64,000 nt of DNA from Candidatus Eiseniibacteriota bacterium. Lineage in GTDB: Bacteria > Eisenbacteria > RBG-16-71-46 > CAVPCR01. Positions 3,016-61,069 of the stretch are shown here, one piece after another. Numbering within the stretch: the stretch's first letter is position 1; every line of letters starts with the position of its first letter. The notes under the pieces are model-generated. The model had not been told where the DNA came from. It made no database searches and worked only from the letters and a program-made list of their open reading frames with translations. The stretch lies in the NCBI GenBank assembly GCA_963823555.1, contig CAWGMA010000001.1, positions 2,176,001-2,240,000 of the forward strand, read 5' to 3'. A program made the translations under genes and the position numbers.

Positions 3016-3844
3016 ATGCGACTCTGGCTTGCGTTGATCGTCGCCCTCTGTCTGACCCCGGCTCTGGCTCTCGCCGAGCTCGATGACGCCGGAAACATCA
3101 TCTACGACCCCGGCCAGAATCCGGTCGAGCCTGGGGACGCCCCGGGGGATCCCTGCGGTCAGTGCCAGACTCCGGGCACCGGTCAGAAGGGCGTCACCTT
3201 CAAGGGCGGCGACCTCTGGACCATCGACAGCGCCGGTCTCCTCTCCCACTACGTCAACTGCGTGATCGTCGAGCAGCAGGGCACGCAGACCGGGGCCTCG
3301 ACCTTCGGTCTCGGCTACGACTCGAACCGGAACCTGTGGGTGATCACGAGCCCGTCGCACCGATCGCGTCTACCAGGTCGATATGGGAGGGGGGCTCGTC
3401 AACTCCTGGCCCACGCCGGGATCGGGACCGGTGGGCGCCGCCTACGACCCGAGCCGTGATCTCTACTGGATCACGGACTTCAGCACCTCCCAGATCTACT
3501 CCATCAACCCGAACACCGGGCTTCCCGGTCCGGCCATCAATGTTCCTGCCGGCTCGCGCCTTGCCGGCACCGGCTACAACGCCGGTGGGGACATCCTCTT
3601 CTATCACGGGCGCAACGAGGCCATGAGCTACTGCATCTCGGCCTCGAACGGGCAGCTCCTGTTCTCCTTCCCCATTCCCGCTGGCGGGGGAAACAACGGG
3701 CAGGGAGCGGGCTGCGCGCCCGGCACCGGCAACGGCTGGCTCACCCACTACGAGCAGCCGTTCGTCTACTGCGTCGAGAGCTGCGGCGGCGCGACCCCGG
3801 TCGAGGCCTCGACCTGGGGCACGATCAAGTCGCTCTACGACTGA
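3016..3844 (+). pseudogene. Secreted beta-propeller-like protein with C-terminal TWGxIK tail; +1 frameshift near 3346-3359 (real lesion or assembly indel)
   Basis: AGGAGG RBS and signal peptide MRLWLALIVALCLTPALALA. Removing 1 nt joins the two ORFs into about 275 aa and restores repeat alignment (GYDSNRNLWVITSPSTDRVY vs AYDPSRDLYWITDFSTSQIY). Ends ATPVEASTWGTIKSLYD. Confidence 0.75.
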
Positions 3845-3867
3845 GGGGACTGACGGGGAGAGCACGG

Positions 3868-3895
3868 CGGGCCGGGCTCGGACGAGCCCGGCCCG
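3868..3895. terminator. Intrinsic terminator hairpin
   Basis: cgggccgggctcg-ga-cgagcccggcccg inverted repeat followed by ttcctctt, between convergent genes. Confidence 0.7.
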
Positions 3896-3932
3896 TTCCT
3901 CTTGCTCCCGATCTGTCGCCGTGATCGAGCAG

Positions 3933-5003
3933 CTACGCCGCCTTCCGCTCCGGGCCGGCCTCCATCGCGCCGCCCAGGCGCTCAGGCGGAACCACCAGTC
4001 CATCCGGAGGGATCGACGCCGCACGCAGCGCCGACTCGATCTCGCCGGCATGTCGCGTGAACGCCTCGACCATCGCCGGGTCGAGCTGGGTGCCGGCCGC
4101 CGCGGCGAGCACGGCCAGGGCCGCCTCCAGCCCACGATCGCCGCGGTGGCTCCGCCGGCTCACGACGGCATCGAAGGTATCGGCGACGGCGATGATGCGC
4201 GCGACGAGAGGGATCGCGTCGCCAGCGATCCGATCCGGATAGCCGGCGCCGTCGAAGCGCTCGTGATGATGGCGCACGCCGCGGCGGGCGCCAGCCAGCC
4301 AGCGGATCGGCCCCAGCATCTCGTCCCCGCGCACCGGGTGCTCCTGCATCACGAGATGCTCCGCGGCAGTCAGCTTGCCGGGCTTCTTCAAGATACGGTC
4401 GGGAACCCCGATCTTCCCGATGTCGTGCAGGAGCGACGCCCAGTAGAGGTCGCGGCGGGTCATGGCGTCGAGCCCGAGCGCCTGCCCGAGCTGGATGGAA
4501 GCGAGATGGACTCGCTCGGAATGGCCGCGCGTGAACGGGTCCCTGGCATCGACGGCGGCGATCAAGCTACGCATGGTGGCATCGAGGATCCCGCCCGATT
4601 GCTCGGGCGCCGGCTCCACCATGTCCCCCGCGGCCGCAGCCAGGGCCAGCAGGCGCTCGAGCAGAGCGTGGAAGCCGGCGATGCGCCGCGCGGGAGCAAT
4701 GGCGAGAAAACGTCCCTGTGCGACCACGCGCAGCACCTGTCCATGCGGGCAGAGATGCGATTCGTCGCGCGCCAGTGCGGGCCGCGTCTCGGCGTGACAG
4801 CGCACGTGGACGGCAGGTGTCTCGCCGCGACAGCGCTGGCAGGCGGGAGCCACCGCCATGCTCAAGCTGCCCTCACGGGCGACATGCCGCTCGATCCCGG
4901 CTCCGGCGCACTCCGCGGCCTGGCGGAGAAGGTCACCGAGGGGATCGAGGGCTGGTGAAGAGGATGGGCCCGGGACCAGGGCCAGGGGGACTCTCGCCGA
5001 CAT
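3933..5003 (-). CDS. HD-GYP domain cyclic-dinucleotide phosphodiesterase with Cys/His-rich N-terminus
   Basis: 'TRGHSERV', 'LLHDIGKIG', 'HHHERFDGAGYP', 'IIAVADTFDA', 'GTQLDP'; AAGGAGG RBS. Confidence 0.9.
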   Translation of the reverse strand: MSARVPLALVPGPSSSPALDPLGDLLRQAAECAGAGIERHVAREGSLSMAVAPACQRCRGETPAVHVRCHAETRPALARDESHLCPHGQVLRVVAQGRFLAIAPARRIAGFHALLERLLALAAAAGDMVEPAPEQSGGILDATMRSLIAAVDARDPFTRGHSERVHLASIQLGQALGLDAMTRRDLYWASLLHDIGKIGVPDRILKKPGKLTAAEHLVMQEHPVRGDEMLGPIRWLAGARRGVRHHHERFDGAGYPDRIAGDAIPLVARIIAVADTFDAVVSRRSHRGDRGLEAALAVLAAAAGTQLDPAMVEAFTRHAGEIESALRAASIPPDGLVVPPERLGGAMEAGPERKAA

Positions 5004-5063
5004 GGACCTCCTTCAGACCGACCGGGCTCGAGATCGCATCGAGCCCGACCGGGCCGTGCAGAG

Positions 5064-5080
5064 TGCAACCCGGTCTTGCA
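5064..5080. promoter_or_regulatory. Palindromic operator, possible enhancer-binding-protein site
   Basis: TGCAA-cccggtc-TTGCA (TGCA-N9-TGCA, NtrC-box geometry), about 190 bp upstream of a sigma-54 motif. Confidence 0.4.
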
Positions 5081-5269
5081 AGCCGCCCGCGGTCGGACCG
5101 CCGCAAACGGGATAGCCACGGCCTGCTGCCAGAATGGACCGGGGGTATGCACAGCCTGTGCCGTCGGGTCGGGGTACGGGATCGGAGCGCAGACCTCCCC
5201 TGTGGCCGCGGGCACCGACCGCGCCGCCGGCGCCCGGGTCCAGGCCGATCCGGCCGCCATGGCCCGTTC

Positions 5270-5285
5270 CGGCATGCGGTTTGCT
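5270..5285 (+). promoter_or_regulatory. Sigma-54 (-24/-12) promoter
   Basis: cGGCAtGcggtTTGCt, close to consensus TGGCACG-N4-TTGC, directly upstream of the HAMP/pilin genes. Confidence 0.65.
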
Positions 5286-5299
5286 TCGCTTGCCGCGAG

Positions 5300-5968
5300 A
5301 TGGATACCTCACCGAACCGGCGCCGCCCTCGCGCCTTCTTGCAGAACCGCCGGGCACAGGTCCTGCAGGCCTTCCTGATTGTCACCTATCTGGTCGTCTA
5401 CACCGCGGCGCTGTCGGCGGCGGCCATCGGCCCCACGGTCCTCGCGCTCCTGCGTCACCCGGCCAGCTTCGAGACGGCGCCTCACCGCGCGGTCGCCGCC
5501 GCCAACGAGCTCTTCTTCTTCGAGGAACGATTCTGGCCGATCGCCGTCGTCCTCATCGTGGTCTTCGGGCTGCACTCGATCTACATGTCGCACCGCGTCT
5601 ATGGTCCCCTCGTTCGCGTGCGAGCGGAGGCGGACCTGGTCGCCACCGGGGATCTGACGCGGCGCGTCGTATTCCGCCGCGGTGACCAGCTGAGCGACCT
5701 GCAGGACTCCATGAACGATATGATCGAAGCGATGGACTCCCGGGTTGCCGCGGCTCAGATCGCGGCCCGCGATTGCGAGGGCGGCCTGCGGCGACTTCAC
5801 GAAGCCCAGTTCACGGGGAGCCCCGCCGGCCGCCTCGCCGCTCATGAGCAGATGGTTGCCGAGTTCGAAGCGCTGAAGCGCCGGCTCGACGATTTCAAGA
5901 CCAGCGCCAACCCGGCCGGCGCTCGTGCAGAAGAGGGCGAGCCGCCCCAGGTGGCCATCGCCTCCTGA
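5300..5968 (+). CDS. Two-TM membrane protein with HAMP domain and short coiled coil
   Basis: Basic N-terminus, two hydrophobic segments, HAMP 'SHRVYGPLVRV...GDLTRRVVFRRGDQLSDLQDSMNDM'; no output domain. Start is uncertain (no RBS). Confidence 0.7.
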   Translation: MDTSPNRRRPRAFLQNRRAQVLQAFLIVTYLVVYTAALSAAAIGPTVLALLRHPASFETAPHRAVAAANELFFFEERFWPIAVVLIVVFGLHSIYMSHRVYGPLVRVRAEADLVATGDLTRRVVFRRGDQLSDLQDSMNDMIEAMDSRVAAAQIAARDCEGGLRRLHEAQFTGSPAGRLAAHEQMVAEFEALKRRLDDFKTSANPAGARAEEGEPPQVAIAS

Positions 5969-5985
5969 GGGGGCGAGACAGGCGC

Positions 5986-6384
5986 ATGCACCACTCTCAC
6001 GCGGCCAAGACTCGTGCCGGGGTAGGCTTCGTCGAGCTGTCGATCGTGCTCGTGATCGTCGGCCTGCTCACCCTGGGCGGCATGGCGAAGGTGCGTGAGG
6101 CCAAGAAGAGCGCCTACCGCATTCGCGCCACCATTGCGCTCGAAGACGTGCATCGCATGGAAGTGCTGCATGCCGCGGTGCACAGCGGTTACACGGCTGA
6201 TTTCGCCGCGCTTCATTCCCTTGGACTGGCCAGCGAACTCGATCCGGTCTATCGATTCAGTCTCGTTTCACCGGATGCCAGTCAATTCACCTGCACGGCG
6301 GCCGCCAACCTCGATCGCGATGCGGCGATCGATTCCTTGATCGTGGACGAGAGCGGCGTTGTGGCGACGGTGGTCAAGGACTGA
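5986..6384 (+). CDS. Type IV pilin-like protein
   Basis: Class III signal-like G|VGFVE with Glu+5 and hydrophobic helix (LSIVLVIVGLL); pilin-like C-terminus 'FTCTAAANLDRDAAID'. Confidence 0.7.
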   Translation: MHHSHAAKTRAGVGFVELSIVLVIVGLLTLGGMAKVREAKKSAYRIRATIALEDVHRMEVLHAAVHSGYTADFAALHSLGLASELDPVYRFSLVSPDASQFTCTAAANLDRDAAIDSLIVDESGVVATVVKD

Positions 6385-6424
6385 AGCGCCTCCCCGCCGC
6401 TCCCGCGTGCAGTCACCGGAGCCG

Positions 6425-7195
6425 TCAATCGCTGAAGTTCGACTTGATGGCTCCCCACGTCGACGCTTCCACGGCGGCCGTCCCCTCCCCGGCGAGATCG
6501 CAGCCGTCCGGTGACCCATAGAGTCGCCCGTTGACCACAGCAGAGCACAGGCTCCAGACCTGGGTTCCGGTGAAGGTGGAAACGGTCCGGCGCACCAGGC
6601 CCAGTCCCGGGACCAGCGTCTCGGACAGCACCTGCGAATCAGCGCAGGGATGATCGTAGTAGTTCAACGTCACCGACCACGGATAGCTGCCCGCGGGCAC
6701 GGTGATGGGCATGGCGGCAGCGGTCACACAGCCCCGAACCCCGTGGACGCAATCCGCAGCCATCGCCGGAATCTCGAACTCGGCGCCAAGATTCTCGAGG
6801 AAACCCTCCTGACAGCAATACCATGCACCCGAGATCGGCTCGACCGGTCCCAGCTTCTGATGGGCATTGACGAGGCGAGGATTCACTTCGCAGGTCTTGC
6901 CGCAGCAGTCGGTGAAGAAGAACATCTCTGCGCCGTTCATCGGAAACATGTAGTTCTCGATTCGGCTCAGGCTGATCCCGCGATCCAGGAATGCCCCCGT
7001 GACGCGAACGGTCTGCGGCGTCCGGAAGCCTGGGTGCGGCGTCTCACAGACGTAGGTCCACTGGTTCCCATCCGTGAGCGGCATCATGCACGTGTGGGTG
7101 TCGTGCGCCCATGCCGCGGCGGAGACAAGAAGTGCCAGAAGGCAAACGGAGGCTGCGGTGATCGCAGCCGATGAATGATGCGCGGCCCTGCTCAT
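6425..7195 (-). CDS. Secreted Cys-rich beta-sheet protein with C-terminal TWGxIK tail
   Basis: Signal peptide ending AWA; motifs 'MPLTDGNQWTY', 'ITVPAGSY', 'PGLGLVR'; ends TAAVEASTWGAIKSNFSD. Confidence 0.75.
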   Translation of the reverse strand: MSRAAHHSSAAITAASVCLLALLVSAAAWAHDTHTCMMPLTDGNQWTYVCETPHPGFRTPQTVRVTGAFLDRGISLSRIENYMFPMNGAEMFFFTDCCGKTCEVNPRLVNAHQKLGPVEPISGAWYCCQEGFLENLGAEFEIPAMAADCVHGVRGCVTAAAMPITVPAGSYPWSVTLNYYDHPCADSQVLSETLVPGLGLVRRTVSTFTGTQVWSLCSAVVNGRLYGSPDGCDLAGEGTAAVEASTWGAIKSNFSD

Positions 7196-7548
7196 GATCG
7201 AACCCCCCGGGCTCTCCCTCGAGATGCGGCATCCGCCGGGTACGAGGGGAACCGATTGTCGCGCGGCTCCGTCGCGCGCGCCCGGCCGCCGGACAGGGGA
7301 ACGCAACCGCTCGGCCCCTCTCCGTTCCGGCGACTGCCCCGACTCCTGCTGTGCTGCGGCGGAGAAGACGCAGCCTTCTACCCCTAACAACGCAGCGGCG
7401 ACCGCCGGGGAACAGGCTTCCGCGGACCCTGCGGGCCGGCGGGGGGCCCTCGCCAGGCGCGCCCTGGTGGCGTAGACTCCGGGTCGTCCCTCGCCCGACC
7501 CCGAACGATTTCCAGGCGCCGCATTGGAACTAGGAGGGATTCACCGCC

Positions 7549-8739
7549 ATGGCATGCTCGCCTGTTCCGTTCCACCCGCCCGCGCGCCTGCTCATGGGCC
7601 CCGGGCCCTCGAATCTCCACCCCCGGGTGGTTGAAGCCCTGGCCTCCCCCCTCCTCGGCCACATGGACCCGCTCGTCCTCGGCCTTCTTGCCGAGGTGCA
7701 GGAACTGCTGCGAGGTGTTTTCGGCACGCGGAATCCACTCACGCTCGCGGTGTCGGGCACCGGATCGGCTGGCATCGAGGCTTGCCTCACGGGGCTCATC
7801 GAACCGGGCGACCCGGTCGTCGTCGAGGTCCACGGCTTCTTCGGCGGACGGCTGGCCGACATGGCGGCCCGGGCCGGCGCTGACGTGACGCGGGTGGAGG
7901 CACCATGGGGCCGCGCCGCCGATCTCGAAGCGCTCCGCCTGGCCGTCAAGAAATCGCCGCCCAGACTCATCGCGGTCGTCCACGCCGAGACCTCGACCGG
8001 CGTGCTTCAGCCCCTGGCCGACGTGGCGGCGATCGCCCGGGAGGCTGGCTCCGCTCTCTTCGTCGACTGCGTCACCTCGCTTGGCGGCATGCCCATCGAG
8101 GCCGAGGAGCTCGGCCTCGCCGCCGCCGCCTCTTGCTCGCAGAAGTGCCTGGGCGCACCGCCAGGGCTCGCCCCCATCACGATGAGCCCCGAAGCCGCCG
8201 CTCGTCTTCGCGACCGCGCGCAACCGCTTCCGTTCTACCTCGATCTGTCGCTCATTGCCCGCTACTGGAACGGCGATCACGCCTACCACCACACGCTCCC
8301 GGTCAACCTGATCTACGCGCTCCACGAGGCGCTGCTCCTGGCCGCAGAGGAGGGCGAGAGCGAGCGCCGCCGCCGTCACGAACGGCACGGCGCCGCGCTG
8401 GCTGCCGGGCTCGAGGATCTCGGTCTCACCATCCTCGCCGCCCCCGGCGACCGCCTGCCGATGCTCACCGCGGTCCGCATACCGGATGGGGTCGATGACG
8501 CGGCCGTGCGGCGCCGGCTGCTCGAGGACTTCAACCTCGAGATCGGAGGCGGGCTCGGAGAGCTCAAGGGCCGGGTCTGGCGTATCGGACTCATGGGCGA
8601 GACCAGCCGCATGAATCACGTGATCCTGCTGCTGGCGGCACTCGGACGCCTGCTCGGGCGCAGCCCGGAGAAGGTCGGGCAGGCCATCGACGCCGCCGGC
8701 GCCCGGGCCGAGGCTACGACCACCAGCGGAGCGCGATGA
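7549..8739 (+). CDS. Alanine-glyoxylate/serine-pyruvate aminotransferase (PLP class V)
   Basis: 'LLMGPGPS', 'HAETSTGV', 'DCVTSLGG', 'SQKCLGAPPGL', 'YHHT', 'WRIGLMG'; AGGAGG RBS. Confidence 0.92.
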   Translation: MACSPVPFHPPARLLMGPGPSNLHPRVVEALASPLLGHMDPLVLGLLAEVQELLRGVFGTRNPLTLAVSGTGSAGIEACLTGLIEPGDPVVVEVHGFFGGRLADMAARAGADVTRVEAPWGRAADLEALRLAVKKSPPRLIAVVHAETSTGVLQPLADVAAIAREAGSALFVDCVTSLGGMPIEAEELGLAAAASCSQKCLGAPPGLAPITMSPEAAARLRDRAQPLPFYLDLSLIARYWNGDHAYHHTLPVNLIYALHEALLLAAEEGESERRRRHERHGAALAAGLEDLGLTILAAPGDRLPMLTAVRIPDGVDDAAVRRRLLEDFNLEIGGGLGELKGRVWRIGLMGETSRMNHVILLLAALGRLLGRSPEKVGQAIDAAGARAEATTTSGAR

Positions 8740-10229
8740 CCCTCGCCGCCATCCGGGAACGGCTCGCGGCCTGCTTGAGCGCTCTGGCGAGCGAGCACCA
8801 TGCCGCCGCCTCCGGGCGGCGCGATAAGCCGCGTTTCAGCGCGATCTTCGATCGCTACGCCGATCTCGCGCGTCGAGAGCCCTTCGACCTCGTGAGCGAG
8901 CACCTGTCGGCAGCCACCGACGTCGACGACGAACGCCGCTTGCGTCATCTGCGGGAGGGCCTCGCCGTTCACGGCGAGGAGTTCCGCCTCCATGCGCTGG
9001 AGCAGCAGCTCGCCGCCCTCAGGGCCTCCTACCGGGTCCAGGTCGAAGGCGAACCGGTGGCCTACCGCGACCTGGAGGCGCGGCTGCATGCCAGCACGGA
9101 CCGCGGCCAGCGGCGGGCCATCCAGCGCGCGATCAACGCGGCGCTCGCCGGTCCGTTCCGTTCCTTGCATGTTGAACGCGCCCGGAGCGCACAGGCCATG
9201 GCCCGGGAGCACGGGTCCGCGAGCTACAGCGATTTCTGGCGCGAGATGTCGGGGATCGATCTCGCAGCGCTGGCGCGGCAGTTCGACCTCTTCTCCGCAC
9301 GCACGAGCGCCCGGATGGTCTCTCTCGTGACGAACGCGCTCCCGGCGGCAGCGGGCATCCCGATCGGCGAGGCGGAGAGCCACGACGCGATCCCGCTCTT
9401 GCGTGGGGCGCGGTTCGATCACGCCTTTCCACGAGGAGGGGCGCTGGCGCTGGCGCGGAGCATCGTCGAAGGCGGGCTGGGTCTCGACCTCATGGCCGGC
9501 GGTCGCATCCACATCGACGTCGAGCCCCGGCGCGGAGCGGGGCCGCTCTTCTTCACGGCGGCGGTCAGGGTACCGGATCACGTCATTCTGTATGGTGCTC
9601 CGGCTGCAGGCATCGAATCCTGGACTGCCCTCTTCCACGAGCTGGGACACGCGCTCCACCTCGCTCACATCGACCCGGATCGGCCCTTCGAGGATCGTCA
9701 CCTCGGCGACAGCTCGGTGAGCGAGGGCTTTGCCGCGCTCTGGGCGGGCATCCTCCACGAGCCCGCATTCGCCCGTCGTCATCTCCGCGACGAGGCGGAG
9801 GCCTATCTCGAGCAGGCCGCTCTGCGCGAGCTCTGGGTCATGCGCCGCTACGCCGCCAAACTGGCCTATGAGCTCGAACTGTGGAGCCCACCGCATGGTA
9901 TGATCAGGGACGCTGCGGCCCGCTACCAGGCGCGGCTCGAGGCGGCGACCCCCCTACCCGTGGACCAAGAACGCTGCTGGGCCGACCTCGGCCTCCGCTT
10001 CCAACCGGCACGCTATCTCCGCGGCTGGCTCCTGGCGGCCGAGCTCCGAGCCCGGCTCCGCGCCGACTTCGGAGAGTGCTGGTTCGAGAGCCGGCGAGCC
10101 GGGAGGCACCTGCGTGAGATCTGGTCCTACGGACAGCAGTGGAACGCGGAGGATCTGGCGCGCCAGCTCGGGGCCGATGGACTCGTGATCGAGCCCCTGC
10201 TGGCTGAAGTCGAGATCCTCGCTGGCTGA
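8736..10229 (+). CDS. M3/M32-like zinc metallopeptidase
   Basis: HELGH zincin motif with downstream 'SEGFA' third ligand; ATGA overlap with the upstream gene. Confidence 0.75.
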   Translation: MTLAAIRERLAACLSALASEHHAAASGRRDKPRFSAIFDRYADLARREPFDLVSEHLSAATDVDDERRLRHLREGLAVHGEEFRLHALEQQLAALRASYRVQVEGEPVAYRDLEARLHASTDRGQRRAIQRAINAALAGPFRSLHVERARSAQAMAREHGSASYSDFWREMSGIDLAALARQFDLFSARTSARMVSLVTNALPAAAGIPIGEAESHDAIPLLRGARFDHAFPRGGALALARSIVEGGLGLDLMAGGRIHIDVEPRRGAGPLFFTAAVRVPDHVILYGAPAAGIESWTALFHELGHALHLAHIDPDRPFEDRHLGDSSVSEGFAALWAGILHEPAFARRHLRDEAEAYLEQAALRELWVMRRYAAKLAYELELWSPPHGMIRDAAARYQARLEAATPLPVDQERCWADLGLRFQPARYLRGWLLAAELRARLRADFGECWFESRRAGRHLREIWSYGQQWNAEDLARQLGADGLVIEPLLAEVEILAG

Positions 10230-10323
10230 ACCGTCTTGCGTCCGGCCCCGTAACTCAAGTGAATATTGACGCCTTGGCGCAGCAAATGACCCATCTGGAT
10301 CATCCTCGATGGAGGTTGCTACG

Positions 10324-10950
10324 ATGATGCAGTCCCGGATATCGACGCGGAAGCGGAACCCGCGCGGCGGCGGATGGCGGGCTCCGGCCGCAGCCGTTCT
10401 GGTCGCCGCGGCTCTCAGCCTTCTCGCCGCTCCCCCGTCGCCGCTGGTTGCGGCCGCGGCGGCCGAGCTCATCGACCTCGGCTCACCGATTCCGGTCGAA
10501 GTCCACTTCCTCTTCGATCCGCTCACCCTGGTCCGGATCCCGCCCGGAGCCTTCGGCTCCTACCCCGAGGGGACCCTGGCCGAGATCCAGGTCGACATGC
10601 CATCGTGCAACGGCCCCAATTGCATCAGCGGGCAAGGCTTGCTCGTGGCGTTCGACGGCCGCTACAGCGGGGACCTGGTCTCCCCCGTCACCATGCAGAT
10701 TCGCTACGACGAGGAGGCCGTGCGGCTCTTCGGGGTCACCGAGGAGGATCTCGTGATCGCCCGCTGGGACGAGCGCTTCCGGGACTGGCGGCCCTATGCC
10801 GGGCAGGAGATCGACCCCGAGAGAAACCTGATCTCCGCCCCCGAGACCGAGAACATCCGCGCCTTCGTGGCGGTCTTCGCGGGAAATCCCGCCCCGGTCG
10901 CGCCCCGGAGCTGGGGGGCGATCAAGGCTCTCTACGCGGTGGAGCCCTAG
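10324..10950 (+). CDS. Secreted protein with ZU5/S-layer-associated-like domain and C-terminal SWGxIK tail
   Basis: GGAGG at 10311-10315; signal peptide; 'VRIPPGAF...PVTMQIRY...EEDLVIARWDE'; ends PAPVAPRSWGAIKALYAVEP. Confidence 0.72.
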   Translation: MMQSRISTRKRNPRGGGWRAPAAAVLVAAALSLLAAPPSPLVAAAAAELIDLGSPIPVEVHFLFDPLTLVRIPPGAFGSYPEGTLAEIQVDMPSCNGPNCISGQGLLVAFDGRYSGDLVSPVTMQIRYDEEAVRLFGVTEEDLVIARWDERFRDWRPYAGQEIDPERNLISAPETENIRAFVAVFAGNPAPVAPRSWGAIKALYAVEP

Positions 10951-21655: not shown

Positions 21656-21742
21656 GGTCGCGGGCGGGATGCCGCGACCGGCTGTCCCGAGCCGCCATCC
21701 AACATGGCAACGGCCTGGGCGGCTCCCCCGGAGGAATGCACG

Positions 21743-24700
21743 TTGGCCGCGAATCGCAGGATTGGGCTCCTGGGTGGTCTCCGCGTCATCGACGGTGATC
21801 GAGAGATCACGCACTTCGTCACGCAGAAGACCGCTTCTCTCCTCGGCTTTCTGGCCTATCATCGCGAGCAAGCGCATCTCCGCGACACCGTGATCGAGAT
21901 GCTCTGGCCCTGGGCCAGTCCCGGAGCCGGCCGCCAGAGCCTGAGCACCGCGCTATCCGCCCTCCGCCACCAGCTCGAGCCGATCGGTTTCTCCCCCGGT
22001 TCCGTCCTCCTCACGGATCGCAACACCGTGCGCTTGAACCCTGAGACGACCGTCACCGATGTCCAGGAGTTCGAGACAGCACTGGCAAATGCTGACAAGG
22101 CGGGACCATCCACCAGGAGGCGACAGCTCGAGCGAGCCATCACCCTCTATCGCGGCGACCTGCTCGCCGGGCTCTATGAAACCTGGATTCCACCCGAGGC
22201 GGAACGTCTTGCAGAGCGGTTCCAGGCGGCAGCCTCGGAACTGGCCCGGATCCTCGCGGCTCGCGGCGAGAAGGAGCTCGCCGCCACTCACCTGGAGCGG
22301 GCCATCGAAACAGCGCCGCAGCGCGAGGAACTCTACCGGCAGCTGATGTGCCTCTATTCGGCACTCGGCGATCCTCATCTGGCGCTCGATCTCTACGCGG
22401 AACTGGAAGCCGGCCTGCGTCAGGGTCGGAGGCAGACCCCGGCGGCGGCGACCCAGGAGCTGGCGCAGGAGCTCAAGCATAGCGTCGTGGCTCGCCCCAT
22501 GGCGACGGCGGCACGCAGGCGAATCATCGATCGCAGGGCGCTGCGTGGAGCTCCCGCCACACTGCCCACCGGGACTGTGACCTTCATCGCCATTCTCGCC
22601 GCCAGCGGGTCCGAGCCCGAGCTCCGCGACCTTGGGTTCGATGAAGAGATGCGACGCCATGGCGGCGTGATGGTCGAACCCGAATCCAACAACGCCGCAT
22701 TGCATGTGATGGCGTTCTCGCATGCCGGCGACGCGCTGAACTGCGTCGCGGCGTGCCAGCTGAGAGCGGCACGGTCTCCGAGCAGGGACGCGTCGCGGCC
22801 GGCCATGGCCGTTCACACCTGCCAAGCGGACGTCGGAACTGACGGGCGCTATCCACGCGGCACCCTCGAACATGTGTTGAGCCTCCTGGCCGTGAGCCAT
22901 CCCGGGCAGATCTTGTACACGGAGACCGCCGCGGCCCTCGTCCGCCATGGATTGAGCGGTGGATTCGGGATGCGCAAACTCGGCCGCTATCGCCTACCGG
23001 GCGGCGCGGCTCCTGAACCCCTCTGTCAGATCGATTACCCGGGCGGTCCCGAGAGCTTTCCCCCGCTCAGAGCCGAACCCGGCCCTGCCAACCATCTGCC
23101 CGTCCGCATGACACGCTTCTTCGGACGCGAGGGCGAGATACTCCAGATCGAGGCCATGCTCTCGAGTGGGGCCCGGCTCATAACCCTCGTCGGCGCGCCG
23201 GGATGCGGAAAGACACGCCTCGCACTCGAGATGGCGAATCGGATGGTCGAGGCGTTCGCTGGTCGTGTGTGGTTCGTGCCACTGACCGACCTGCCCGAGG
23301 GTAGTGGCATCCACGACCGGACTCTCGACTCGCTCCGGATCACGCGTTCTCCTCGGATCCCACCCCTCGGTCGAATCGAGTCGGAACTCGCCGATCACCG
23401 GGCGCTCATCGTGTTCGACAACTTCGAACACCTGCTTGGAGCAGCGGGTGAACTGAGCACTCTGCTCGAACATCTACCGCACCTCCATTGCCTCGTCACC
23501 TCGCGACGGCGGCTGAACCTCCCGGAAGAGGAGTGCTTCGGGGTCTATCCCCTGCCGACGCCGATGGACTCCTCCATGAAGACCCTGCTCGCCAATGAGA
23601 GCATCCGGTTGTTCATCGATCGGGCCCAGGCCGTCGCGCCCGAGTTCGATTTGACTGCCGACAACTCCGGGGCTGTGGCGGAGATCTGCGCGCGTCTGGA
23701 TGGCATCCCGCTGGCCGTCGAGCTCGCTGCTGGCCGCCTCAACGTACTGGCGCCGGATCAGATCCTGGAACACCTGGGGGGGCCAGGAACCCTCATGTCC
23801 AGCCGCATTCGAGACGATGACACGCGGCATCGCACCCTGCGGGCAGCCGTGGACTGGAGTTACTCCCTGCTCGATCCCGAGCTCCAGACGTTCTTCGCGC
23901 AGCTCTCCGTGTTCGCGGGGGGGTGGACCACCGAGGCTGCCGAGGCGGTGTGCGATCAGCCGCTGGCCGAGGACCGCCTCTCCGAGCTCTCCGCCTGGTC
24001 GCTGGTCCTCTTCAGGGAAGCGAGCGAAATCGGAGCACAAGCGGGAACCGGTTCCGAGCCTCGCTTCGAGATGTACGCGAGCCTCCGGGAGTTCGCGCGC
24101 GAGAAGCTGCATGCGCTCGACGCTGACCTGGAGCGCCAGGCAGAGGAGCGGCATGGACGGTGGTATGCGCAGCATGGCACCGACGCGGCCATCACGGCGC
24201 TCGACCTGCACGGTGGAGTGGAGCGCCGCAAGAAGCTGGGAAGGGAGCTGGAGAACCTGGTCGTTGCCTGCCAGCGAGCCAGCGAGCGTGGCGATGGCGA
24301 GATCGCCGGGGATGCCTATTGTGGCGCGGCGGCGGTGCTCCTCTTCCAGGGGCCCTTCCACAGGGCCATCTCCCTCGGCGAGCGGGTGGGGGCACTGCCG
24401 CTCGATCAGCCGCACCGGATCCGGGTACTCAGGTATCTGGGGATCGCGGAACTTCGTTCCGGACAACACGATCAGGCAAGGGGCCACTTCGAGGCCGGGC
24501 TTGCGCTGGCGCGAGAGACGGGTCAGCGGCGCGATGAGGGCATGCTCCTCGCATGCCTGTACAGCCTTTGCCGGGAGCAGAACCGATTTCAAGAAGCACG
24601 CTCGCTCATCGAGGGCGCCCTGGCCATCGCCCGGGAGGTCGGAGATCGGATCAATGAGGGCATCTTCCTCGGAAACCTGGGTTCTCTGGACTTCACTGTG

Positions 24701-25669
24701 GGTCGGGTGAGAGAGGCGGAATCCCATACCAAGGCGGCGATCGCCATCCATCGCGAGGTCGGCAACCGCAGTCAGGAGGGTCTCTGCCTCGGAAACTTCG
24801 GCGTCATCTGCCGCGAGCAGGGCCGCACGAGCGAGGCACGCACCCATTATGAGTCGGCGCTCGCCATCCATCGCGAGGTCGGCAACCGGCGGCTGGAAGG
24901 GGTTCTCCTCGGTTATCTGGGGAATCTGTGCCGCTCTCAGGGGAAGCGCGACGAGTCCCGCACCTATCTCGAGGCGGCGCTCGCCATCCACCGGGAAGTC
25001 GGCAACCTCGCCTCCGTCGGGATCACGCTCGGTTTTCTGGGCAATCTGCATCGCGAGCAGGGCAGGATCGACGAGGCGGTCACGCTCTACGATGATGCCC
25101 TGGCCGTGGCGCGGAAGATCGGTGACAGGCGAACTGAGGGCACGATCCTGGGCAATCTCGGCATCTCGCAGTATGGCCGAGAGCGGATGCAGGAAGCCGA
25201 GTCGTACTACCGAGCGGCCATCGCCATTCATCGGGAGACATCTGACAGCGGAGGGGAAGGCCGTACGCTTCACAGCCTGGGGTTGCTCTGCCTCGAACAG
25301 AACCGACTGGACGAGGCGCAGAGTCATTTCGAGTCTGCGCTCGATACCGTGAAGGCAGGAGGCAACACGCGAAGCGAGGGTGCCATCCTCGAGAGTCTGG
25401 GCTCCGTGTTCATGGCCAAGGGCCTGATCCAGCAGGCAAGGGAAGCGATCGACCGCGGTGAGGAGATTCTCCGCGCGGTCGGCAACCCATGGGAACTGGC
25501 AAGCCTCTACTGCACGCGGGCTCAACTGGAGATGAAGATCGGCAACCCGTCCGCCGCCATCACGGCGCTCAGGAGGGCGGAGGACCTGGCCGTCCAGGCG
25601 GGGGCGGGACCGGAATCGGAACTGGCGAAACGGCTGGCCGAAGCCCGCCTGATCTGCCCGGCGCTCTAG
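21743..25669 (+). CDS. AfsR-like STAND regulator: wHTH+BTAD (SARP), degenerate class III cyclase, NB-ARC-like ATPase, TPR array
   Basis: 'TQKTASLLGFLA', 'LYRGDLLAG', Walker A GAPGCGKT, Walker B 'LIVFDNFEH', 'LDGIPLAVELAA', 40-aa TPRs. TTG 21743 follows GGAGG; alternative ATG 21704. Confidence 0.88.
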   Translation: MAANRRIGLLGGLRVIDGDREITHFVTQKTASLLGFLAYHREQAHLRDTVIEMLWPWASPGAGRQSLSTALSALRHQLEPIGFSPGSVLLTDRNTVRLNPETTVTDVQEFETALANADKAGPSTRRRQLERAITLYRGDLLAGLYETWIPPEAERLAERFQAAASELARILAARGEKELAATHLERAIETAPQREELYRQLMCLYSALGDPHLALDLYAELEAGLRQGRRQTPAAATQELAQELKHSVVARPMATAARRRIIDRRALRGAPATLPTGTVTFIAILAASGSEPELRDLGFDEEMRRHGGVMVEPESNNAALHVMAFSHAGDALNCVAACQLRAARSPSRDASRPAMAVHTCQADVGTDGRYPRGTLEHVLSLLAVSHPGQILYTETAAALVRHGLSGGFGMRKLGRYRLPGGAAPEPLCQIDYPGGPESFPPLRAEPGPANHLPVRMTRFFGREGEILQIEAMLSSGARLITLVGAPGCGKTRLALEMANRMVEAFAGRVWFVPLTDLPEGSGIHDRTLDSLRITRSPRIPPLGRIESELADHRALIVFDNFEHLLGAAGELSTLLEHLPHLHCLVTSRRRLNLPEEECFGVYPLPTPMDSSMKTLLANESIRLFIDRAQAVAPEFDLTADNSGAVAEICARLDGIPLAVELAAGRLNVLAPDQILEHLGGPGTLMSSRIRDDDTRHRTLRAAVDWSYSLLDPELQTFFAQLSVFAGGWTTEAAEAVCDQPLAEDRLSELSAWSLVLFREASEIGAQAGTGSEPRFEMYASLREFAREKLHALDADLERQAEERHGRWYAQHGTDAAITALDLHGGVERRKKLGRELENLVVACQRASERGDGEIAGDAYCGAAAVLLFQGPFHRAISLGERVGALPLDQPHRIRVLRYLGIAELRSGQHDQARGHFEAGLALARETGQRRDEGMLLACLYSLCREQNRFQEARSLIEGALAIAREVGDRINEGIFLGNLGSLDFTVGRVREAESHTKAAIAIHREVGNRSQEGLCLGNFGVICREQGRTSEARTHYESALAIHREVGNRRLEGVLLGYLGNLCRSQGKRDESRTYLEAALAIHREVGNLASVGITLGFLGNLHREQGRIDEAVTLYDDALAVARKIGDRRTEGTILGNLGISQYGRERMQEAESYYRAAIAIHRETSDSGGEGRTLHSLGLLCLEQNRLDEAQSHFESALDTVKAGGNTRSEGAILESLGSVFMAKGLIQQAREAIDRGEEILRAVGNPWELASLYCTRAQLEMKIGNPSAAITALRRAEDLAVQAGAGPESELAKRLAEARLICPAL
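24601..25260 (+). repeat. 120-bp periodic TPR-coding repeats
   Basis: tcgccatccatcgcgaggtcggcaaccg is identical at 24741 and 24861, with related units at 24621, 24981, 25101 and 25221. Confidence 0.85.
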
Positions 25670-25804
25670 ACCGCCTGTGGAGACCGCCCGGGCTCGATTC
25701 CAGGGGCCGAGCGGAAGCCTGCACTCCGCACGTCCGGAATGAAGCCGTAAGACATTATAAAAAGATCACTTACAGGAACATCAAGAACGATTTAAGACTT
25801 TTGT

Positions 25805-25992
25805 GAGAGTGAGCGCGCATCGTCACTTCACGCGCAACGAAGGTGATGAAGCCGCAAGCAAGCTCCGGCCAGGAGGGCCGGATCAGGCCGGGAGGTGCGC
25901 GGTTGGGTCGTCGGGGGAAGGCCGCTACCCCCGACCGCGCGCCAGGACGAGAAGCCCCGGCGGGTGGTGCCCCGCCGGGGCTTCTGCTTGTT
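25805..25992 (+). ncRNA. Candidate structured small RNA with multiple GGA motifs
   Basis: Follows an AT-rich patch (25748-25803), has several hairpins (tccggcc-aggag-ggccgga), ends in a strong terminator, and contains no coding-like ORF. Confidence 0.3.
25950..25985 (+). terminator. Intrinsic terminator
   Basis: agaagccccggcggg-tggtgc-cccgccggggcttct, a 15-bp stem followed by gcttgtt. Confidence 0.75.
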
Positions 25993-26141
25993 CGAGATGG
26001 CCTGCGATCCGCAACGATGCGGGCTATTCCCATTTCTCCCCTGTGGATGATATTCTCAGCAAGTGGCTCTGCGGGAACGCCTTCTTTCCCGCCTGAGTCG
26101 GTCGGTCCATCCCCGGCCCAGACCCATTCGGGAATCGAGCC

Positions 26142-29100: not shown

Positions 29101-29756
29101 CCGCCTACCTCGACGAAGGTCGACCTGAGAAGGCAAAGGACGACCTGGAGAGAGCGGCGGCGATACGGCGCCAGCTTGACGACAAGGAGGCTCTGGCAAC
29201 GCAGCTCGTCACCCTCGCCCGCGCCCTGCAGAGCATGGGAGAGGATACGCGCGCCGATTCCCTGTGGCGGGAGTGCCTGGCAATCAGGCGAGAGATCGAT
29301 GATCTCCCCGGGGCGGCCCAGGTATTGCTCGAACTGGCAGCCGCCAGAGCGACCGCCGGGGATCATGAGGCGGCTGCGCGACGCATCGGAGAGTGCCTCG
29401 CTTTCGCTCGCGATCTGGGTGCCCACCCCACGGCAACGGATGCGTGCGCGACGCTCGCGGAAACCGCCGCTGCGATCGGCAGGACCGATCCAGCCGACTC
29501 CGCTTCAGCACTCTGGACATGCGCGGTCAAGCTGGCTGGGGCAGCCGAGTCACTGCGGGGAGAATCACAAGCCGCGCCGACAACGGATGCGGCACGGCCG
29601 GACGAGCGACTGCTGAGGGAAGCGCGGGCCGCTCTCGGTGCAGCGGCCTTCACGAGTGCCCTGGCGGAGGGTCGGGCCATGAGCTTCGATCAAACCATTA
29701 CCTACGCGCTCGGTGCCGTGAAGGAGCTTCGCTCGGACTCCAGCTTGCCGACATGA
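26142..29756 (+). CDS. Second AfsR-like SARP-degenerate cyclase-STAND ATPase-TPR regulator
   Basis: 'TQKTAALLAYLA', 'LYQGEFLPG', 'DPLREE', Walker A GPPGVGKS, 'LLILDDMEH', 'LEGLPLAIELAA', 'RFRMLDLVREYA'; own extended -10 TGaTATTCT at 26048-26056. Confidence 0.9.
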   Translation: MAASWHIRFFGGLVLQGPDRTITRFRTQKTAALLAYLAYHLGRTFPRETLVDMLWPGDSISGRHSLSTALTSLRRQVELPGLPADSVLVADRYCVALSADTVSTDVIQFRAALLRAERARNAEERIHALEHAVGLYQGEFLPGLYEEWVGRESLAHSERFANALCELTILLEKRGDSVAAIEFARRAIQADPLREEPYRELMRLYAGMGEPSTAVRYYHDLVQVFRTELDESPSPETRALAKKIQDELSLSDGSQPAETDSTRRGDRDRADRSATAATAPAGTAALLWVEITPADQAHERVATPTPGRLRKVLRREIPSHGGHIGTTPEGQHLGVFARAADAVACAAACQCALAGKSGHPARNTTFRGAIHTGDVETTGSIYSGSAVEHLAHLLTTACGGQILCSEATAGLLRPILDGGVTIQSIGTYRIGEKAVAERIYQINYPGQKITRFPPPRAAHGRPSNLPLQLPRFFGREEELRQLVGLLTTSDIRLITLAGPPGVGKSRLAIETGTRALESFGGAVWYVDVGHLRDAARIPHEILEALAIEPDGKIGLLTQLTRALAEERGLLILDDMEHLAAGAPLIRSLLEDCPQLRVLVTSRELLHLPGEREVMVAPLPIPVADDAPEKLAVTPSAQLLVDRARSVRPDFELTAHNAPYLAAICQQLEGLPLAIELAASCIHKMGFPDTLEFFAHELDLPINNGEIRTRHGTLRAALDWSFDRLGPDHQRFFACLAVFRGGWTAEAAEAVGDDPLALDHLADLADCSLIQTEHGPSAVRFRMLDLVREYALERLVVLGDAGPAEARHREFYLDLATRATADRHRALSAAQLEVLDAEHENMLAAIECFSMTPRCASVALRLAVALHPFWCRRGHLKLGLAVISRILSLPEAPRHSQLRAEALHALGLLSREQGACPIAQRHLEDSLAIYREHDDARGAASVLHELGILFARRHEWDRAQDRFMQALSLVLESGDLWLEARIRGDRGAAYLDEGRPEKAKDDLERAAAIRRQLDDKEALATQLVTLARALQSMGEDTRADSLWRECLAIRREIDDLPGAAQVLLELAAARATAGDHEAAARRIGECLAFARDLGAHPTATDACATLAETAAAIGRTDPADSASALWTCAVKLAGAAESLRGESQAAPTTDAARPDERLLREARAALGAAAFTSALAEGRAMSFDQTITYALGAVKELRSDSSLPT

Positions 29757-53727: not shown

Positions 53728-55635
53728 CTACTTCATGAGCGTGATCTTGTGCGTGGACTCGACGTCGCCGGCCTCGAACCGAACCAGGTAGACGCCGCTG
53801 GGAAGTTGCTTGCCGGAACCGGAACGACCGTCCCAGGTGATGGCCTGCTCCCCGGCCGCGAACCGCTCGCCGGCGGCGAGCGTCCGCACCAGGCGTCCGG
53901 AGAGATCGTAGACGGCGATGTCGACCGGTCCCTCCTGGCGCAGGGCGAAGCGGATCTGGGTGGCCGGGTTGAACGGATTCGGCGTGTTGCCCTTGAGCTC
54001 GGTACGCGCCGAGACGAGCGGCGTTCCCGAATCGTCCACCGCGACCCCGCCCGAGGCGATGTCATCGGGCGAGCGCGGCTGGATGCGATAGGTCGCGAAG
54101 GCGAAGTCGAGCGGGCCCCGGACGTACGGCAGCGGATCGCCGATCGTCGGATCGTAGAAGTAGAGTCCTTCGTCGCCGATGAGCACCGTATCCGGGCTGG
54201 CGGCCGCCTTCACCTTCCATTCGCCAAAGCCGATCGACGTGTCCGCGGCCACGACCACATTGTTGACGCGGACGAAGACGCCCTCGTAGGCCTCCGCGGT
54301 GAGCGTGTCCTTGAGGGTGGCGACCGTGACCACATCGGGACCGGGAATCGGCTGCCCGCTGGCCATCACCTCCACGAACCAGGGGTTCGAGATCTCGGTC
54401 TTGCGGTTGAACTCGAGCACCCGGCCTGCCACCTTGAGCTGATCACCGCGCAGCACGAGGTGGCGGCGATCGAAGACGTAGACAGCAGAGCGGGGTCCAC
54501 CGCCCGGCTTCTCGATGTAGTAGCGGCTGCCGTCGGCGCCGAAGTAGTCGTGGGTGTTGTCCCCGGTGACGATGCCGGTCACCGTCACGACCTGGTTGGC
54601 GACCGGGGAATCCCGGCCCGTCCCCTGCACGAAGTCGATGGTCGAGACGCCGCCGATGAACGTCAGCGACTGCGTCGTCACCATCGGCGTGCCCTCCTCG
54701 TTCTCGACGCCGGAGACGTCCAGGATCTCGGGCGTCGGGTTGTTGGGCACGAACGGTGTGGCCACCGTCAGATGGACGAGGTCGTGCTCGACGGCATCGC
54801 GCACGGCCGTGCTGGGGAATTCACCCAGGTTGTTGAAGAAGTAGTTGAGCTCGTCGCCGGCGCTCACCGCATCCACATCGCGGTCGAAGCGGACATCGAC
54901 CTGGGTGTTGGACGTGCAGTAGGCCACCTCGACCTCGGGCGCCGGTTCGCCCGAAGCCCAGTCGAGGTCGTCGTTGTCACGCGGGTTGAGCTTGAACTCG
55001 CCGAACGAGAAGTGGATGACACCCGTCATGAAGTTGAACACCGATCCGACGGGCGGGCGCGGCGGAGTGTTGAGACAGGTGTCATCGCAGGTCAGGGTGT
55101 CGGTAGGAACGGTCGCATCCTCGTCGATCTCGATCACCGTGTACTGCCCGAACCCCTGGTGCAACGTGACGCGCACCGAGTCCACCTTCACCAGCACCCC
55201 TTCCCAGTCCTCGGCCGTGGGGCTGCCGGTGTGGATGGTGTTGACGTCGAGGAGCGCCGGTTGCGGCACCGCCACCACGCCCTCCAGGACGACCGAGCCG
55301 CCCCCCGCCGGCACGTCGAGCTCGCTGACATCGAAGTACTCGATGTACTTGCCCTTGACGCGGACCTTGTCCCCGACCTCGACGGCCGGGGTCGATCCCG
55401 TGTAGCACCAGATGCCGCTCCGCGGGAAGGAAGTGGCTGCGGGTTCCTGCACCCACACCCCGAAGGGAGCCAGGGCGGTGACGACGACGCCGCGCACGGT
55501 CACGATCGTATTCTCCGGATAGACGCCGTTCTGGATATCGGGAATGAAGGCGTCTTCCGGGTCCTGGGCCCAGGCCCCGCCCGCGGCGAGGAGGAGCACA
55601 GCTCCGACGAGGGGGATCCAATTTCGCGCTCTCAT
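53728..55635 (-). CDS. Secreted protein with duplicated OB-fold modules and C-terminal FlgD-Ig (T9SS type A-like) domain
   Basis: Signal peptide AWA; two repeats of 'VTVxGxV...GDxxxVxG...E(Y/F)...AExxEGVxVxV'; CTD 'NTPNPFNPAT...YDLSGRLVRTL...WDG...SGVY...KITLMK'. Confidence 0.85.
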   Translation of the reverse strand: MRARNWIPLVGAVLLLAAGGAWAQDPEDAFIPDIQNGVYPENTIVTVRGVVVTALAPFGVWVQEPAATSFPRSGIWCYTGSTPAVEVGDKVRVKGKYIEYFDVSELDVPAGGGSVVLEGVVAVPQPALLDVNTIHTGSPTAEDWEGVLVKVDSVRVTLHQGFGQYTVIEIDEDATVPTDTLTCDDTCLNTPPRPPVGSVFNFMTGVIHFSFGEFKLNPRDNDDLDWASGEPAPEVEVAYCTSNTQVDVRFDRDVDAVSAGDELNYFFNNLGEFPSTAVRDAVEHDLVHLTVATPFVPNNPTPEILDVSGVENEEGTPMVTTQSLTFIGGVSTIDFVQGTGRDSPVANQVVTVTGIVTGDNTHDYFGADGSRYYIEKPGGGPRSAVYVFDRRHLVLRGDQLKVAGRVLEFNRKTEISNPWFVEVMASGQPIPGPDVVTVATLKDTLTAEAYEGVFVRVNNVVVAADTSIGFGEWKVKAAASPDTVLIGDEGLYFYDPTIGDPLPYVRGPLDFAFATYRIQPRSPDDIASGGVAVDDSGTPLVSARTELKGNTPNPFNPATQIRFALRQEGPVDIAVYDLSGRLVRTLAAGERFAAGEQAITWDGRSGSGKQLPSGVYLVRFEAGDVESTHKITLMK

Positions 55636-60056: not shown

Positions 60057-60058
60057 CT

Positions 60059-61069
60059 CTAGAACTCGAAGCGCAGCGAGATCCGGTCTACTCGATCGAA
60101 GTACTCGGAGCTCGAGAACGCATAGTCGATGTGGGTAGCCACTCGATCGCCACCGAAGTGAACGCCGACACCTCCCGACCAGGGCAAGGCGTCGGAAGCT
60201 CCGTCATAACCGCCGCGCAGCTCGAGCACGTCGACGACCTCGACCTCCGCTCCGAAACGCAGGGTCTCGTCATTGTCCGCGGGGCGCACGAATTCCCCGG
60301 TCACGAAGAGCGCGGCCCGGCGATCGGTCCATGCTCGGTAGGAAGAAGCCAGCGTGAACGTGGTCGGGGGCGAGAAGCCGGCGAAATCGACCTCGGTGCC
60401 GCCGCCGGACCGGGGGTCGACGTAGGAGCCTCCGGGCTTGAAGTCCGGCCCGAAGCTGGTGATCGACATGGCGAGAACGACTCCGCGGAATCCGGTGTCG
60501 AACGTCGTACCCATGTCGACGAGCCAGGTCTTGGTCGAGGGCCCGCCGATCTCGGTGCCGAGCGCTTCGTAGGCGTAACGGCCCGAGACGCCGAACGTGA
60601 AGCGATCGGTGAGGTGGCGAGCGTAGCTCAGACCGAAGGCCAGGTCGCGATGGGTGAAGCTGCGGCCGGTGCCGTCGGGCTGGAGCTCGGTCGTCTCCTC
60701 GAGGTCGCTCGCAAGGGAGAGCGCCGACAGTCCGATGACACCGCCCCAGGGGATCTCGGATACGACCCCGGCTGCGGTCATGTCGACGCCGGCGAGCCAG
60801 CTCACGTGCTCGACCACGAACGTCGGCCGCCTCAGGTCGGAGAGTCCGGCCGGATTGTTGAAGAGGCTCATCGGATCGCCGAGGATCGCGGTCGAGGCGC
60901 GCCCCATCGCCACCGAGCGCGCCCCGATCCCGATCTTCAGGAAGGTGCCGGAGGACGTGCCGACGCGCTGCGAGCCGATCGGCCCGGCAGCGGCCGGAGC
61001 GGCGGCCAGAACGAGGGCGAGAGCCACCGCGCCGAGGCGGCGCCTCCCTGTGCCCGCTCGCATCACCAT
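60059..61069 (-). CDS. PorV/PorQ family outer-membrane beta-barrel
   Basis: 'GTSSGTFLKIGIGARSVAMG', 'NNPAGL', 'ETTELQPDGTG', terminal Phe (LRFEF). Confidence 0.85.
   Translation of the reverse strand: MVMRAGTGRRRLGAVALALVLAAAPAAAGPIGSQRVGTSSGTFLKIGIGARSVAMGRASTAILGDPMSLFNNPAGLSDLRRPTFVVEHVSWLAGVDMTAAGVVSEIPWGGVIGLSALSLASDLEETTELQPDGTGRSFTHRDLAFGLSYARHLTDRFTFGVSGRYAYEALGTEIGGPSTKTWLVDMGTTFDTGFRGVVLAMSITSFGPDFKPGGSYVDPRSGGGTEVDFAGFSPPTTFTLASSYRAWTDRRAALFVTGEFVRPADNDETLRFGAEVEVVDVLELRGGYDGASDALPWSGGVGVHFGGDRVATHIDYAFSSSEYFDRVDRISLRFEF

Follow-up and report, generated by a model that had tools for sequence, protein, structure and literature searches.

Three proteins with predicted export signals and different bodies, encoded in a 64,000-nucleotide stretch of the Candidatus Eiseniibacteriota assembly GCA_963823555.1, end in nearly the same short C-terminal tail, and this tail is our subject. 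The stretch, called the window here, is C1:2176001-2240000 in a genome of 4.62 Mb with 67% GC that is 92.5% complete. Cargo protein 1 (3016..3844, plus strand) has a signal peptide from 3016, a body of unknown family and a terminal tail at 3791..3844. Cargo protein 2 (6425..7195, minus strand) is a Cys-rich protein of 256 residues with its tail at 6425..6481, and cargo protein 3 (10309..10950, plus strand), of about 208-213 residues, has its tail at 10888..10950; all three tail intervals include the stop codon. An earlier note, made from the sequence alone, had placed the tails at these positions, and each one does abut its stop codon, scoring 33.8, 28.1 and 26.1 bits respectively against a profile hidden Markov model (HMM) of the tail. 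The three bodies are unrelated, with zero matches at E<1e-5 in BLASTP among them. Protein 2 has a paralogue at C1:1395094-1395849 (41% identity) that also bears a tail, and the tail ends all 15 of the non-self homologues found for protein 3, for which leads in the ESM Atlas were all below 0.9. Further along the window, a secreted protein at 53728..55635 (minus strand) served for comparison. It ends in a C-terminal domain (CTD) of the FlgD-Ig type, that is, of type A in type IX secretion systems (T9SS), above the cut-offs of both PF13860 and TIGR04183. The CTD is preceded by the VAVDD linker to which the earlier note had likened the start of the tail.

The claim that all three are signal-peptide proteins held for proteins 2 and 3, by a crude heuristic of our own rather than SignalP. 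For protein 1 it held in part, since the signal peptide lies in another frame than the tail-bearing open reading frame (ORF). Protein 1 is split in the assembly by a one-base frameshift near 3356, so that the signal peptide starts at 3016 and the tail is read from an ORF at 3383-3844 in a different frame. One contig from a public sequencing run has one base fewer at this site (3355..3356, plus strand), which restores the reading frame; it is a single low-depth contig (335 nt, depth 4.2) that differs in two other letters. Neither piece of protein 1 matched Pfam or NCBIfam. Public RNA data (run X9) reach short pieces only. Short truncated ORFs elsewhere suggest more such indel errors in the assembly.

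Genome-wide, the tail is a C-terminal element of 17 residues with the consensus (A/P)VExx(T/S)WGx(I/V)Kxx(Y/F). The HMM, seeded with 104 tails, gave 109 matches of at least 15 bits among 73,655 six-frame ORFs, 105 of them within 12 residues of the C-terminus, and 108 ORFs have the tail no more than 25 residues from their end. Three pairs of these are duplicates in an overlap of contig ends (C2:715931-723060 and C4:565-8775), leaving about 105 distinct tail ORFs. Placement at the end is far from random. A codon model of our own called 3,531 genes, and in their last 20 residues the strict motif [ST]WG.[ILV]K is present 89 times, where composition alone predicts 0.045; elsewhere it turns up 3 times. 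Signal peptides, by the same heuristic, accompany 76 of 93 called tail genes, compared with 155 of 234 CTD genes and 788 of 2,951 others. The bodies that carry the tail fall into 67 families in this one genome, some of them tandem paralogues (15 and 10 members), and their folds include beta-helix and Chlamydia-PMP repeats. The longest tail body has 479 residues (n=93) and 132 of 234 CTD bodies exceed 500, which suggests that the two tags serve different cargo ranges.

All 40 aligned copies of the tail have W, G and K without variation, and the lead-in is AVE or PVE in 66 of 108. Its pattern is amphipathic, with Trp, Ile and Tyr/Phe on one face. It is no transmembrane helix: when the best 15-residue hydropathy is taken from the final 30 residues of each ORF, the median is 0.64 and only 3 of 108 exceed 1.6. 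Nor is it a family defined in NCBIfam or Pfam: 0 of 40 tails matched NCBIfam and Pfam gave only two chance matches (E 0.04 and 0.19); the tails of the window proteins had zero matches in either library. The tail and the lipoprotein pair described below are undescribed in the papers that we searched, a coverage that left out most subscription papers and all supplements. Zero matches were returned for the exact motif strings, for Eisenbacteria combined with type IX secretion, or for Eisenbacteria with signal peptide, C-terminal and outer membrane together, and the tail is absent from the titles and abstract starts of the papers returned for Poribacteria, Krumholzibacter, Latescibacter, Ignavibacteria and Rhodothermus. 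The tail is real, uncatalogued in the libraries searched, and a variant of C-terminal sorting signal.

How the tail relates to known sorting signals is seen in its exchange with them. None of the 108 tail ORFs carries a CTD, though 258 ORFs of the genome have one of the FlgD-Ig/T9SS type A kind, so the two never occur together, a point that the earlier note had suggested checking. Its idea that the tail substitutes for the CTD is supported as well: the genome has CTD-bearing homologues for 39 of 108 tail bodies, and 23 of 108 align with them up to the same junction; about half of those 23 swaps belong to one beta-helix family. A similar exchange was found with PEP-CTERM signals. Among 90 homologues of a DVUA0089-type cargo, 51 end in the tail, 25 in a PEP-CTERM-type end and 14 otherwise (scored by regular expression), with the switch at the same residue. 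In the local CTD alignment the start, G-V/I, looks similar to the lead-in AVE/PVE. Position, the absence of overlap with CTDs, the same-junction swaps and hydropathy together support a short, portable, non-transmembrane C-terminal tag with a CTD-like lead-in.

The genome encodes a T9SS core, consisting of SprA, a PorU-like C25 peptidase next to PorV, and at least six PorV-family genes. GldM was not found in it by a family search that did match 49 Bacteroidota genomes. Exosortase (PF09721) was likewise not found in this 92.5% complete genome, and other sortase families were not searched for. Tail genes are not regularly clustered with PorV paralogues, with 2 tail genes in the nine neighbourhoods inspected. 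There are 21 Peptidase C25 matches on C1, including a tandem run at C1:490795-516153.

Compared with the T9SS type A CTD (TIGR04183 and PF18962; the FlgD-Ig form PF13860 in this genome), the tail is alike in its C-terminal position, its signal peptides, the shared junction, the similar lead-in and its presence in genomes with SprA, PorV and PorU; a conserved Lys near the end is a further likeness to CTDs as they are described in part of PMC10994853. It is unlike them in having 17 residues that form a single helix in two AlphaFold2 models, in place of the CTD beta-sandwich, in lacking motifs B, D and E and any GxY motif in its column profile, in matching none of TIGR04183, PF18962 and PF13860, in the size of its bodies (under 500 residues), and in a distribution that tracks a pair of lipoproteins, not SprA as such. 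The lead-in may also be likened to the cleavage consensus PT/GI of the short CTDs of Prevotella intermedia (PMC11969387, section 3.5). Type B CTDs with their PorP/SprF-like shuttles, in the portions of PMC12618676 that treat them, offer the precedent of a second C-terminal signal class with a dedicated reader beside the PorV route. That reader is a barrel, however, whereas the one proposed here is an NTF2-like lipoprotein, and type B signals come in cognate gene pairs, not as about 105 cargoes to one reader; the tails had no NCBIfam match, and PorP/SprF genes were not searched for in the genome. With PEP-CTERM/exosortase, LPXTG, GlyGly-, MYXO- and WGxxGxxG-CTERM signals (bioRxiv 10.1101/2023.06.07.544157, in passages that name neither T9SS nor Eisenbacteria nor Poribacteria) the tail shares its shortness, its many copies and its signal-peptide proteins, and with PEP-CTERM also the exchange on the same body. 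It differs from PEP-CTERM and the other tripartite signals in having no transmembrane segment and no Arg cluster. Cohesin-dockerin pairs and donor-strand complementation resemble it as cases of a short portable element that binds a scaffold non-covalently and also occurs in cis in relatives of the scaffold; their folds are other ones, the element here being a predicted helix in an NTF2-like cone, and no similarity to them in sequence was found.

The lipoproteins lie outside the window, in a conserved operon after rsmA at C2:173417-176930. It comprises a barrel-like gene (C2:174939-176930, 663 residues), lipoprotein A (C2:174327-174911), which ends in a degenerate tail, and lipoprotein B (C2:173417-174076), which stops where the tail would start. 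The barrel label rests on weak Pfam matches (E 0.001-0.07) together with sequence pattern. A and B are homologous (HHalign 99.2%) and adopt an NTF2/SnoaL-like fold (Foldseek E 1e-4, probability 1.0; VIA-align Z 14.0, rmsd 1.9 over 116 residues), a match that by itself indicates no function. Neither lipoprotein of this genome had a Pfam, NCBIfam or PDB sequence match; in the ESM Atlas, B matched clusters at 0.93-0.94 from Bacteroidota and Eisenbacteria. Their family has five genes in the genome, and the other three are B-family lipoproteins in tandem with canonical tails (C1:1650359-1653512). Proteins with several tails are lipoproteins, with one tail behind each domain: two of the three tandem proteins run domain-tail-domain-tail, and relatives in the database have three or four tails at their ends. 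Proteins of this kind might link several pockets together, or join into head-to-tail chains. Among 51 close homologues of B, 21 by regular expression (22 by eye) run on into a canonical tail and the others stop there, one being a fragment. The barrel-like gene was found in 51 of 61 genomes of the phylum by a single-sequence search; of seven misses retested with a profile, six gave strong E-values and the seventh a weak one. In 30 barrel loci fetched, the gene was followed by a complete A in 24; a B that was complete and tail-less was present in 7, and the 1.5-kb flank truncated the others.

Structure prediction placed the tail on the lipoprotein domain. In an AlphaFold2 model of a natural fusion of B domain and tail, the tail helix has a predicted local distance difference test score (pLDDT) of 95, and the linker before it 73-76; in lipoprotein A the tail-like helix reaches 94-97. 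The models suggest that the tail packs in cis on its domain in A and in the natural fusions. Co-folding B (residues 40-219) with the last 32 residues of cargo protein 1 gave a score of 0.89, against 0.02 for the best of three controls, by a mark that is reached by 116 of 157 complexes with solved structures and by only 2 of 215 pairs that were mismatched; these counts apply only roughly to models built, as here, on our own alignments. Runs agreed in at least 97% of contacts, with a partner pLDDT of at least 66, and the confident contacts cover partner residues 18-32, which is the tail exactly. The 32 interface positions of B are twice as conserved as the rest (0.29 versus 0.15 over seven distant B orthologues). 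The earlier note had named a PorV paralogue as a possible handler of the tail; natural fusions, the co-fold and co-occurrence favour the NTF2-like lipoprotein instead.

The tail is nearly universal in its own phylum, where the profile matched 120 of 121 genomes with 1 to at least 73 copies each, and matches of the A/B type were found in 116 of the 121. A lamin-tail-domain protein with a tail (C1:312559-313191; loci L059-L062) is a conserved carrier in genomes of family f7, which have 1-5 tails each. Among 1.84 billion representative sequences the profile hit 782 clusters at E<=0.001, and 147 of the best 150 have the tail within 15 residues of the end. We also scanned DNA for the pattern in 5 of 64 parts of a genome collection and obtained 125 loci. 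The tail was C-terminal in 32 of 33 from Eisenbacteria, 5 of 5 from Krumholzibacteriia, 20 of 20 from Poribacteria, 2 of 2 each from Latescibacterota and Fermentibacterota, 2 of 2 labelled Acidobacteriota and 36 of 40 in records without a taxon name, compared with only 4 of 21 in other named taxa. It is conserved across phyla at 30-72% GC. Two contigs of metagenome-assembled genomes labelled Acidobacteriota and one labelled Hyphomicrobiales have C-terminal tails (L170, L180 and L214), which may reflect transfer or misbinning. SprA-like matches were present in 5 of 5 genomes tested from other tail-bearing lineages, one of them below the cut-off.

Bacteroidota, the phylum of an Ignavibacteriaceae-labelled record, allowed the tail, the lipoproteins and the T9SS to be told apart. 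Among 201 genomes, 76 have the A/B pair, 75 of these in exactly two copies. All 76 are SprA-positive and 75 of them have no GldM above the cut-off; the pair was found in 0 of 39 SprA-negative genomes. The tail profile (E<=0.05) matches 62 of the 201, and 61 of the 62 have the pair. The sole exception is a borderline match (E 0.0495) among the 49 GldM-positive genomes. A further 38 genomes have SprA and neither GldM nor the pair, which a lineage-specific profile also failed to find, and in 0 of these 38 was there a tail match. Set against 61 of 62, this indicates that the tail tracks the A/B pair more closely than it tracks SprA or loss of the motor. Profiling against SprA had been suggested; in these Bacteroidota every pair-positive genome is SprA-positive, but SprA does not bring the tail with it. 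On the same 38 genomes, which have neither tail nor pair, we rejected the tail as a general mark of motor-less T9SS. One genome, G311, is the only one sampled with both GldM above the cut-off and the A/B pair.

Pair-positive Bacteroidota have a simple version of the arrangement. Their carrier, in 29 of the 30 loci that were read, is a single small Ig-like protein with a signal peptide and a near-canonical tail end; it is single-copy, its tail is almost invariant (L295-L324), and a gene that we presume to be Maf-like is often its neighbour. The domain resembles those that precede CTDs in our genome; no tail-bearing counterpart of the carrier was among the matches there. Poribacteria vary the arrangement in another way. 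The own-phylum tail profile misses their variant of the tail (genome G123 gave 0 matches at E<=0.01), so their tails rest on the pattern scan. A related lipoprotein is present in 31 of 31 genomes by a profile built from five of their own sequences; in genome G126, where the lipoprotein A profile found nothing, this lineage-specific profile found the relative. It is tail-less in 25 of 25 loci read, and there is one domain-tail fusion besides. The Poribacteria gene (L270-L294) sits in a conserved run, with a small conserved secreted protein on one side and on the other a gene that, from its sequence pattern, we take to resemble a polysaccharide chain-length regulator.

We take the following as established: the tag, its C-terminal position, its swaps with CTDs and PEP-CTERM, the operon, the natural fusions and the co-occurrence of tail and lipoprotein pair. 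The interpretation that we favour, with moderate confidence, is that the tail is a portable tag and that lipoprotein B captures tagged cargo after export across the inner membrane and delivers or holds it at the cell surface beside a motor-less T9SS. A portable 17-residue tag would sit at the C-terminus of exported proteins, which presumably cross the inner membrane by Sec. The tail would then fold as a short helix into the predicted empty pocket of the NTF2-like lipoprotein B, which would hold the cargo non-covalently, and B would likely bring it to the surface, or keep it there, next to the type IX system that lacks its usual motor. The tail itself may have arisen as the last helix of the lipoprotein family and been copied onto cargo later. 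Least supported of these steps is the last crossing, in which cargo might pass the outer membrane via SprA or via the barrel-like protein of about 660 residues.

Several results weigh against capture and surface delivery by B. Five genomes of the own phylum, 85-94% complete, have tails and no A/B match (G061, G077, G081, G094 and G095). The barrel, too, is missing from three of them, and that of G095 runs into the end of its contig; assembly gaps would fit these five without being proven, and otherwise they speak against a strict dependence on the pair. Among the pair-positive Bacteroidota tested, the barrel gave no more than a weak match in 6 of 9, and the three Poribacteria tested gave no match. 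The link to Poribacteria is weak as well: the cross-phylum lipoprotein profile reached an E-value of about 1e-9 at best in them, with matches in 13 of 31 genomes at E<=0.1. The Bacteroidota genomes are kin, so their profile amounts to a few independent events, not 201. On the structural side, the co-fold was computed on alignments of our own, and natural fusions may have taught the model this arrangement, while the conservation of the interface is in part that of buried core residues. The co-fold would accordingly speak to complementarity of domain and tail, not to capture of cargo in cells. Finally, one B for about 105 cargoes is more easily imagined as a shuttle than as a one-to-one anchor.

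A more specific scheme, which we put forward tentatively and think less likely than not, makes the barrel-like protein, A and B a separate outer-membrane pathway for export and display of small proteins. B would read the helical tag by fold complementation and the barrel of about 660 residues would be the conduit. The pathway would accompany motor-less type IX systems across phyla related to the Fibrobacterota-Chlorobiota-Bacteroidota group; it would have shrunk to one small Ig-like cargo in some Bacteroidota and grown to about a hundred cargoes in our genome.

It is also conceivable, if rather unlikely, that the tail docks on B and the cargo stays periplasmic, with B serving as tether or scaffold at the outer membrane's inner face, and no crossing at all. 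Every result on B is compatible with this, the failure to find the barrel-like gene in the three Poribacteria fits it, and the upper limit of 479 residues for tail bodies, with 132 of 234 CTD bodies above 500, points to a different range of cargo. The cargo folds tell against it, beta-helix and Chlamydia-PMP repeats being typical of surface proteins, and so does the restriction of the pair to SprA-positive genomes in Bacteroidota (76 of 76). Moreover, T9SS CTDs, which according to PMC10994853 direct proteins across the outer membrane, are found on paralogues of tail bodies in the same genome.

We think it improbable that the tail is instead a T9SS signal of minimal size that SprA or a PorV paralogue recognises directly, possibly with a PorU-type cut at the lead-in, and that the lipoproteins are simply more cargo. 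Such a signal would account for the same-junction swap with CTDs, for a lead-in (66 of 108) that resembles both the local CTD start and the PT/GI consensus of Prevotella (PMC11969387, section 3.5), and for the invariant, CTD-like Lys near the end (PMC10994853, in its description of CTDs). SprA, PorU-like C25 and at least six PorV-family genes are at hand in the genome, and SprA-like matches in all five genomes tested from other tail-bearing lineages, one below the cut-off. But the modelled tail is a helix, unlike the beta-sandwich CTD that PorV binds in the account given in that part of PMC10994853, and the tail is missing from all 38 SprA-positive genomes without GldM and pair, with the one borderline match (E 0.0495) among 49 GldM-positive ones. 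Reading by PorV or SprA also leaves unexplained a conserved paralogue that ends right before the tail, and the internal tails behind lipoprotein domains.

Direct binding of an amphipathic tail helix to the membrane or to an envelope polymer, with no protein reader, would suit the Trp, Ile and Tyr/Phe face and the many cargoes per genome, which then require no one-to-one partner; we regard it as very unlikely, given that the invariance of W, G and K (40 of 40) is stricter than lipid binding needs and that the predicted pocket is specific and the tail closely accompanies the lipoprotein pair. That the tail is a functionless relic of gene duplication or domain shuffling, as the tandem cargo families of 15 and 10 members might hint, is scarcely credible when a single genome has 67 body families, when the tail is conserved in several phyla at 30-72% GC and when Bacteroidota have a conserved single-copy carrier.

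Other features of the window were noted in passing. A PorV/PorQ-family gene at 60059..61069 (minus strand), relevant as context for reading by PorV and with no link to the tail shown, belongs to an operon-like run at 55742-63813 (minus strand) that adjoins the CTD protein at 53728-55635. The run comprises a TonB-dependent-receptor-like gene, the PorV-family gene, an NHL-repeat protein, a protein with a weakly CTD-like end and a probable lipoprotein; similar clusters of receptor, PorV and CTD genes are found at C1:971701-977712 and C4:620597-627673. Two regions (21704-29756 and 47996-50743) encode BTAD/ATPase/TPR regulators, two of them side by side, as well as a TPR-CHAT protein that neighbours what is probably a pair of ECF sigma factors. 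A multiheme cytochrome c, probably a lipoprotein, is encoded at 679-1881.

If capture of the tail by B is correct, a new C-terminal sorting signal and its receptor would be named together, in a design absent from the signals in the papers searched: a helical peptide would complete an NTF2-like lipoprotein, instead of a sortase cutting the signal or a beta-sandwich being read. As a docking label for the cell envelope the tail would be of a kind not described before. Thousands of hypothetical proteins from Eisenbacteria, Krumholzibacteria, Poribacteria, Latescibacterota and Fermentibacterota would be given a route, and uncharacterised parts would be added to type IX systems that lack the GldLM motor. 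A 17-residue tag with a small soluble receptor would also be on offer. The peptide-binding step is testable in vitro, and the single-cargo version in some Bacteroidota is open to genetics.

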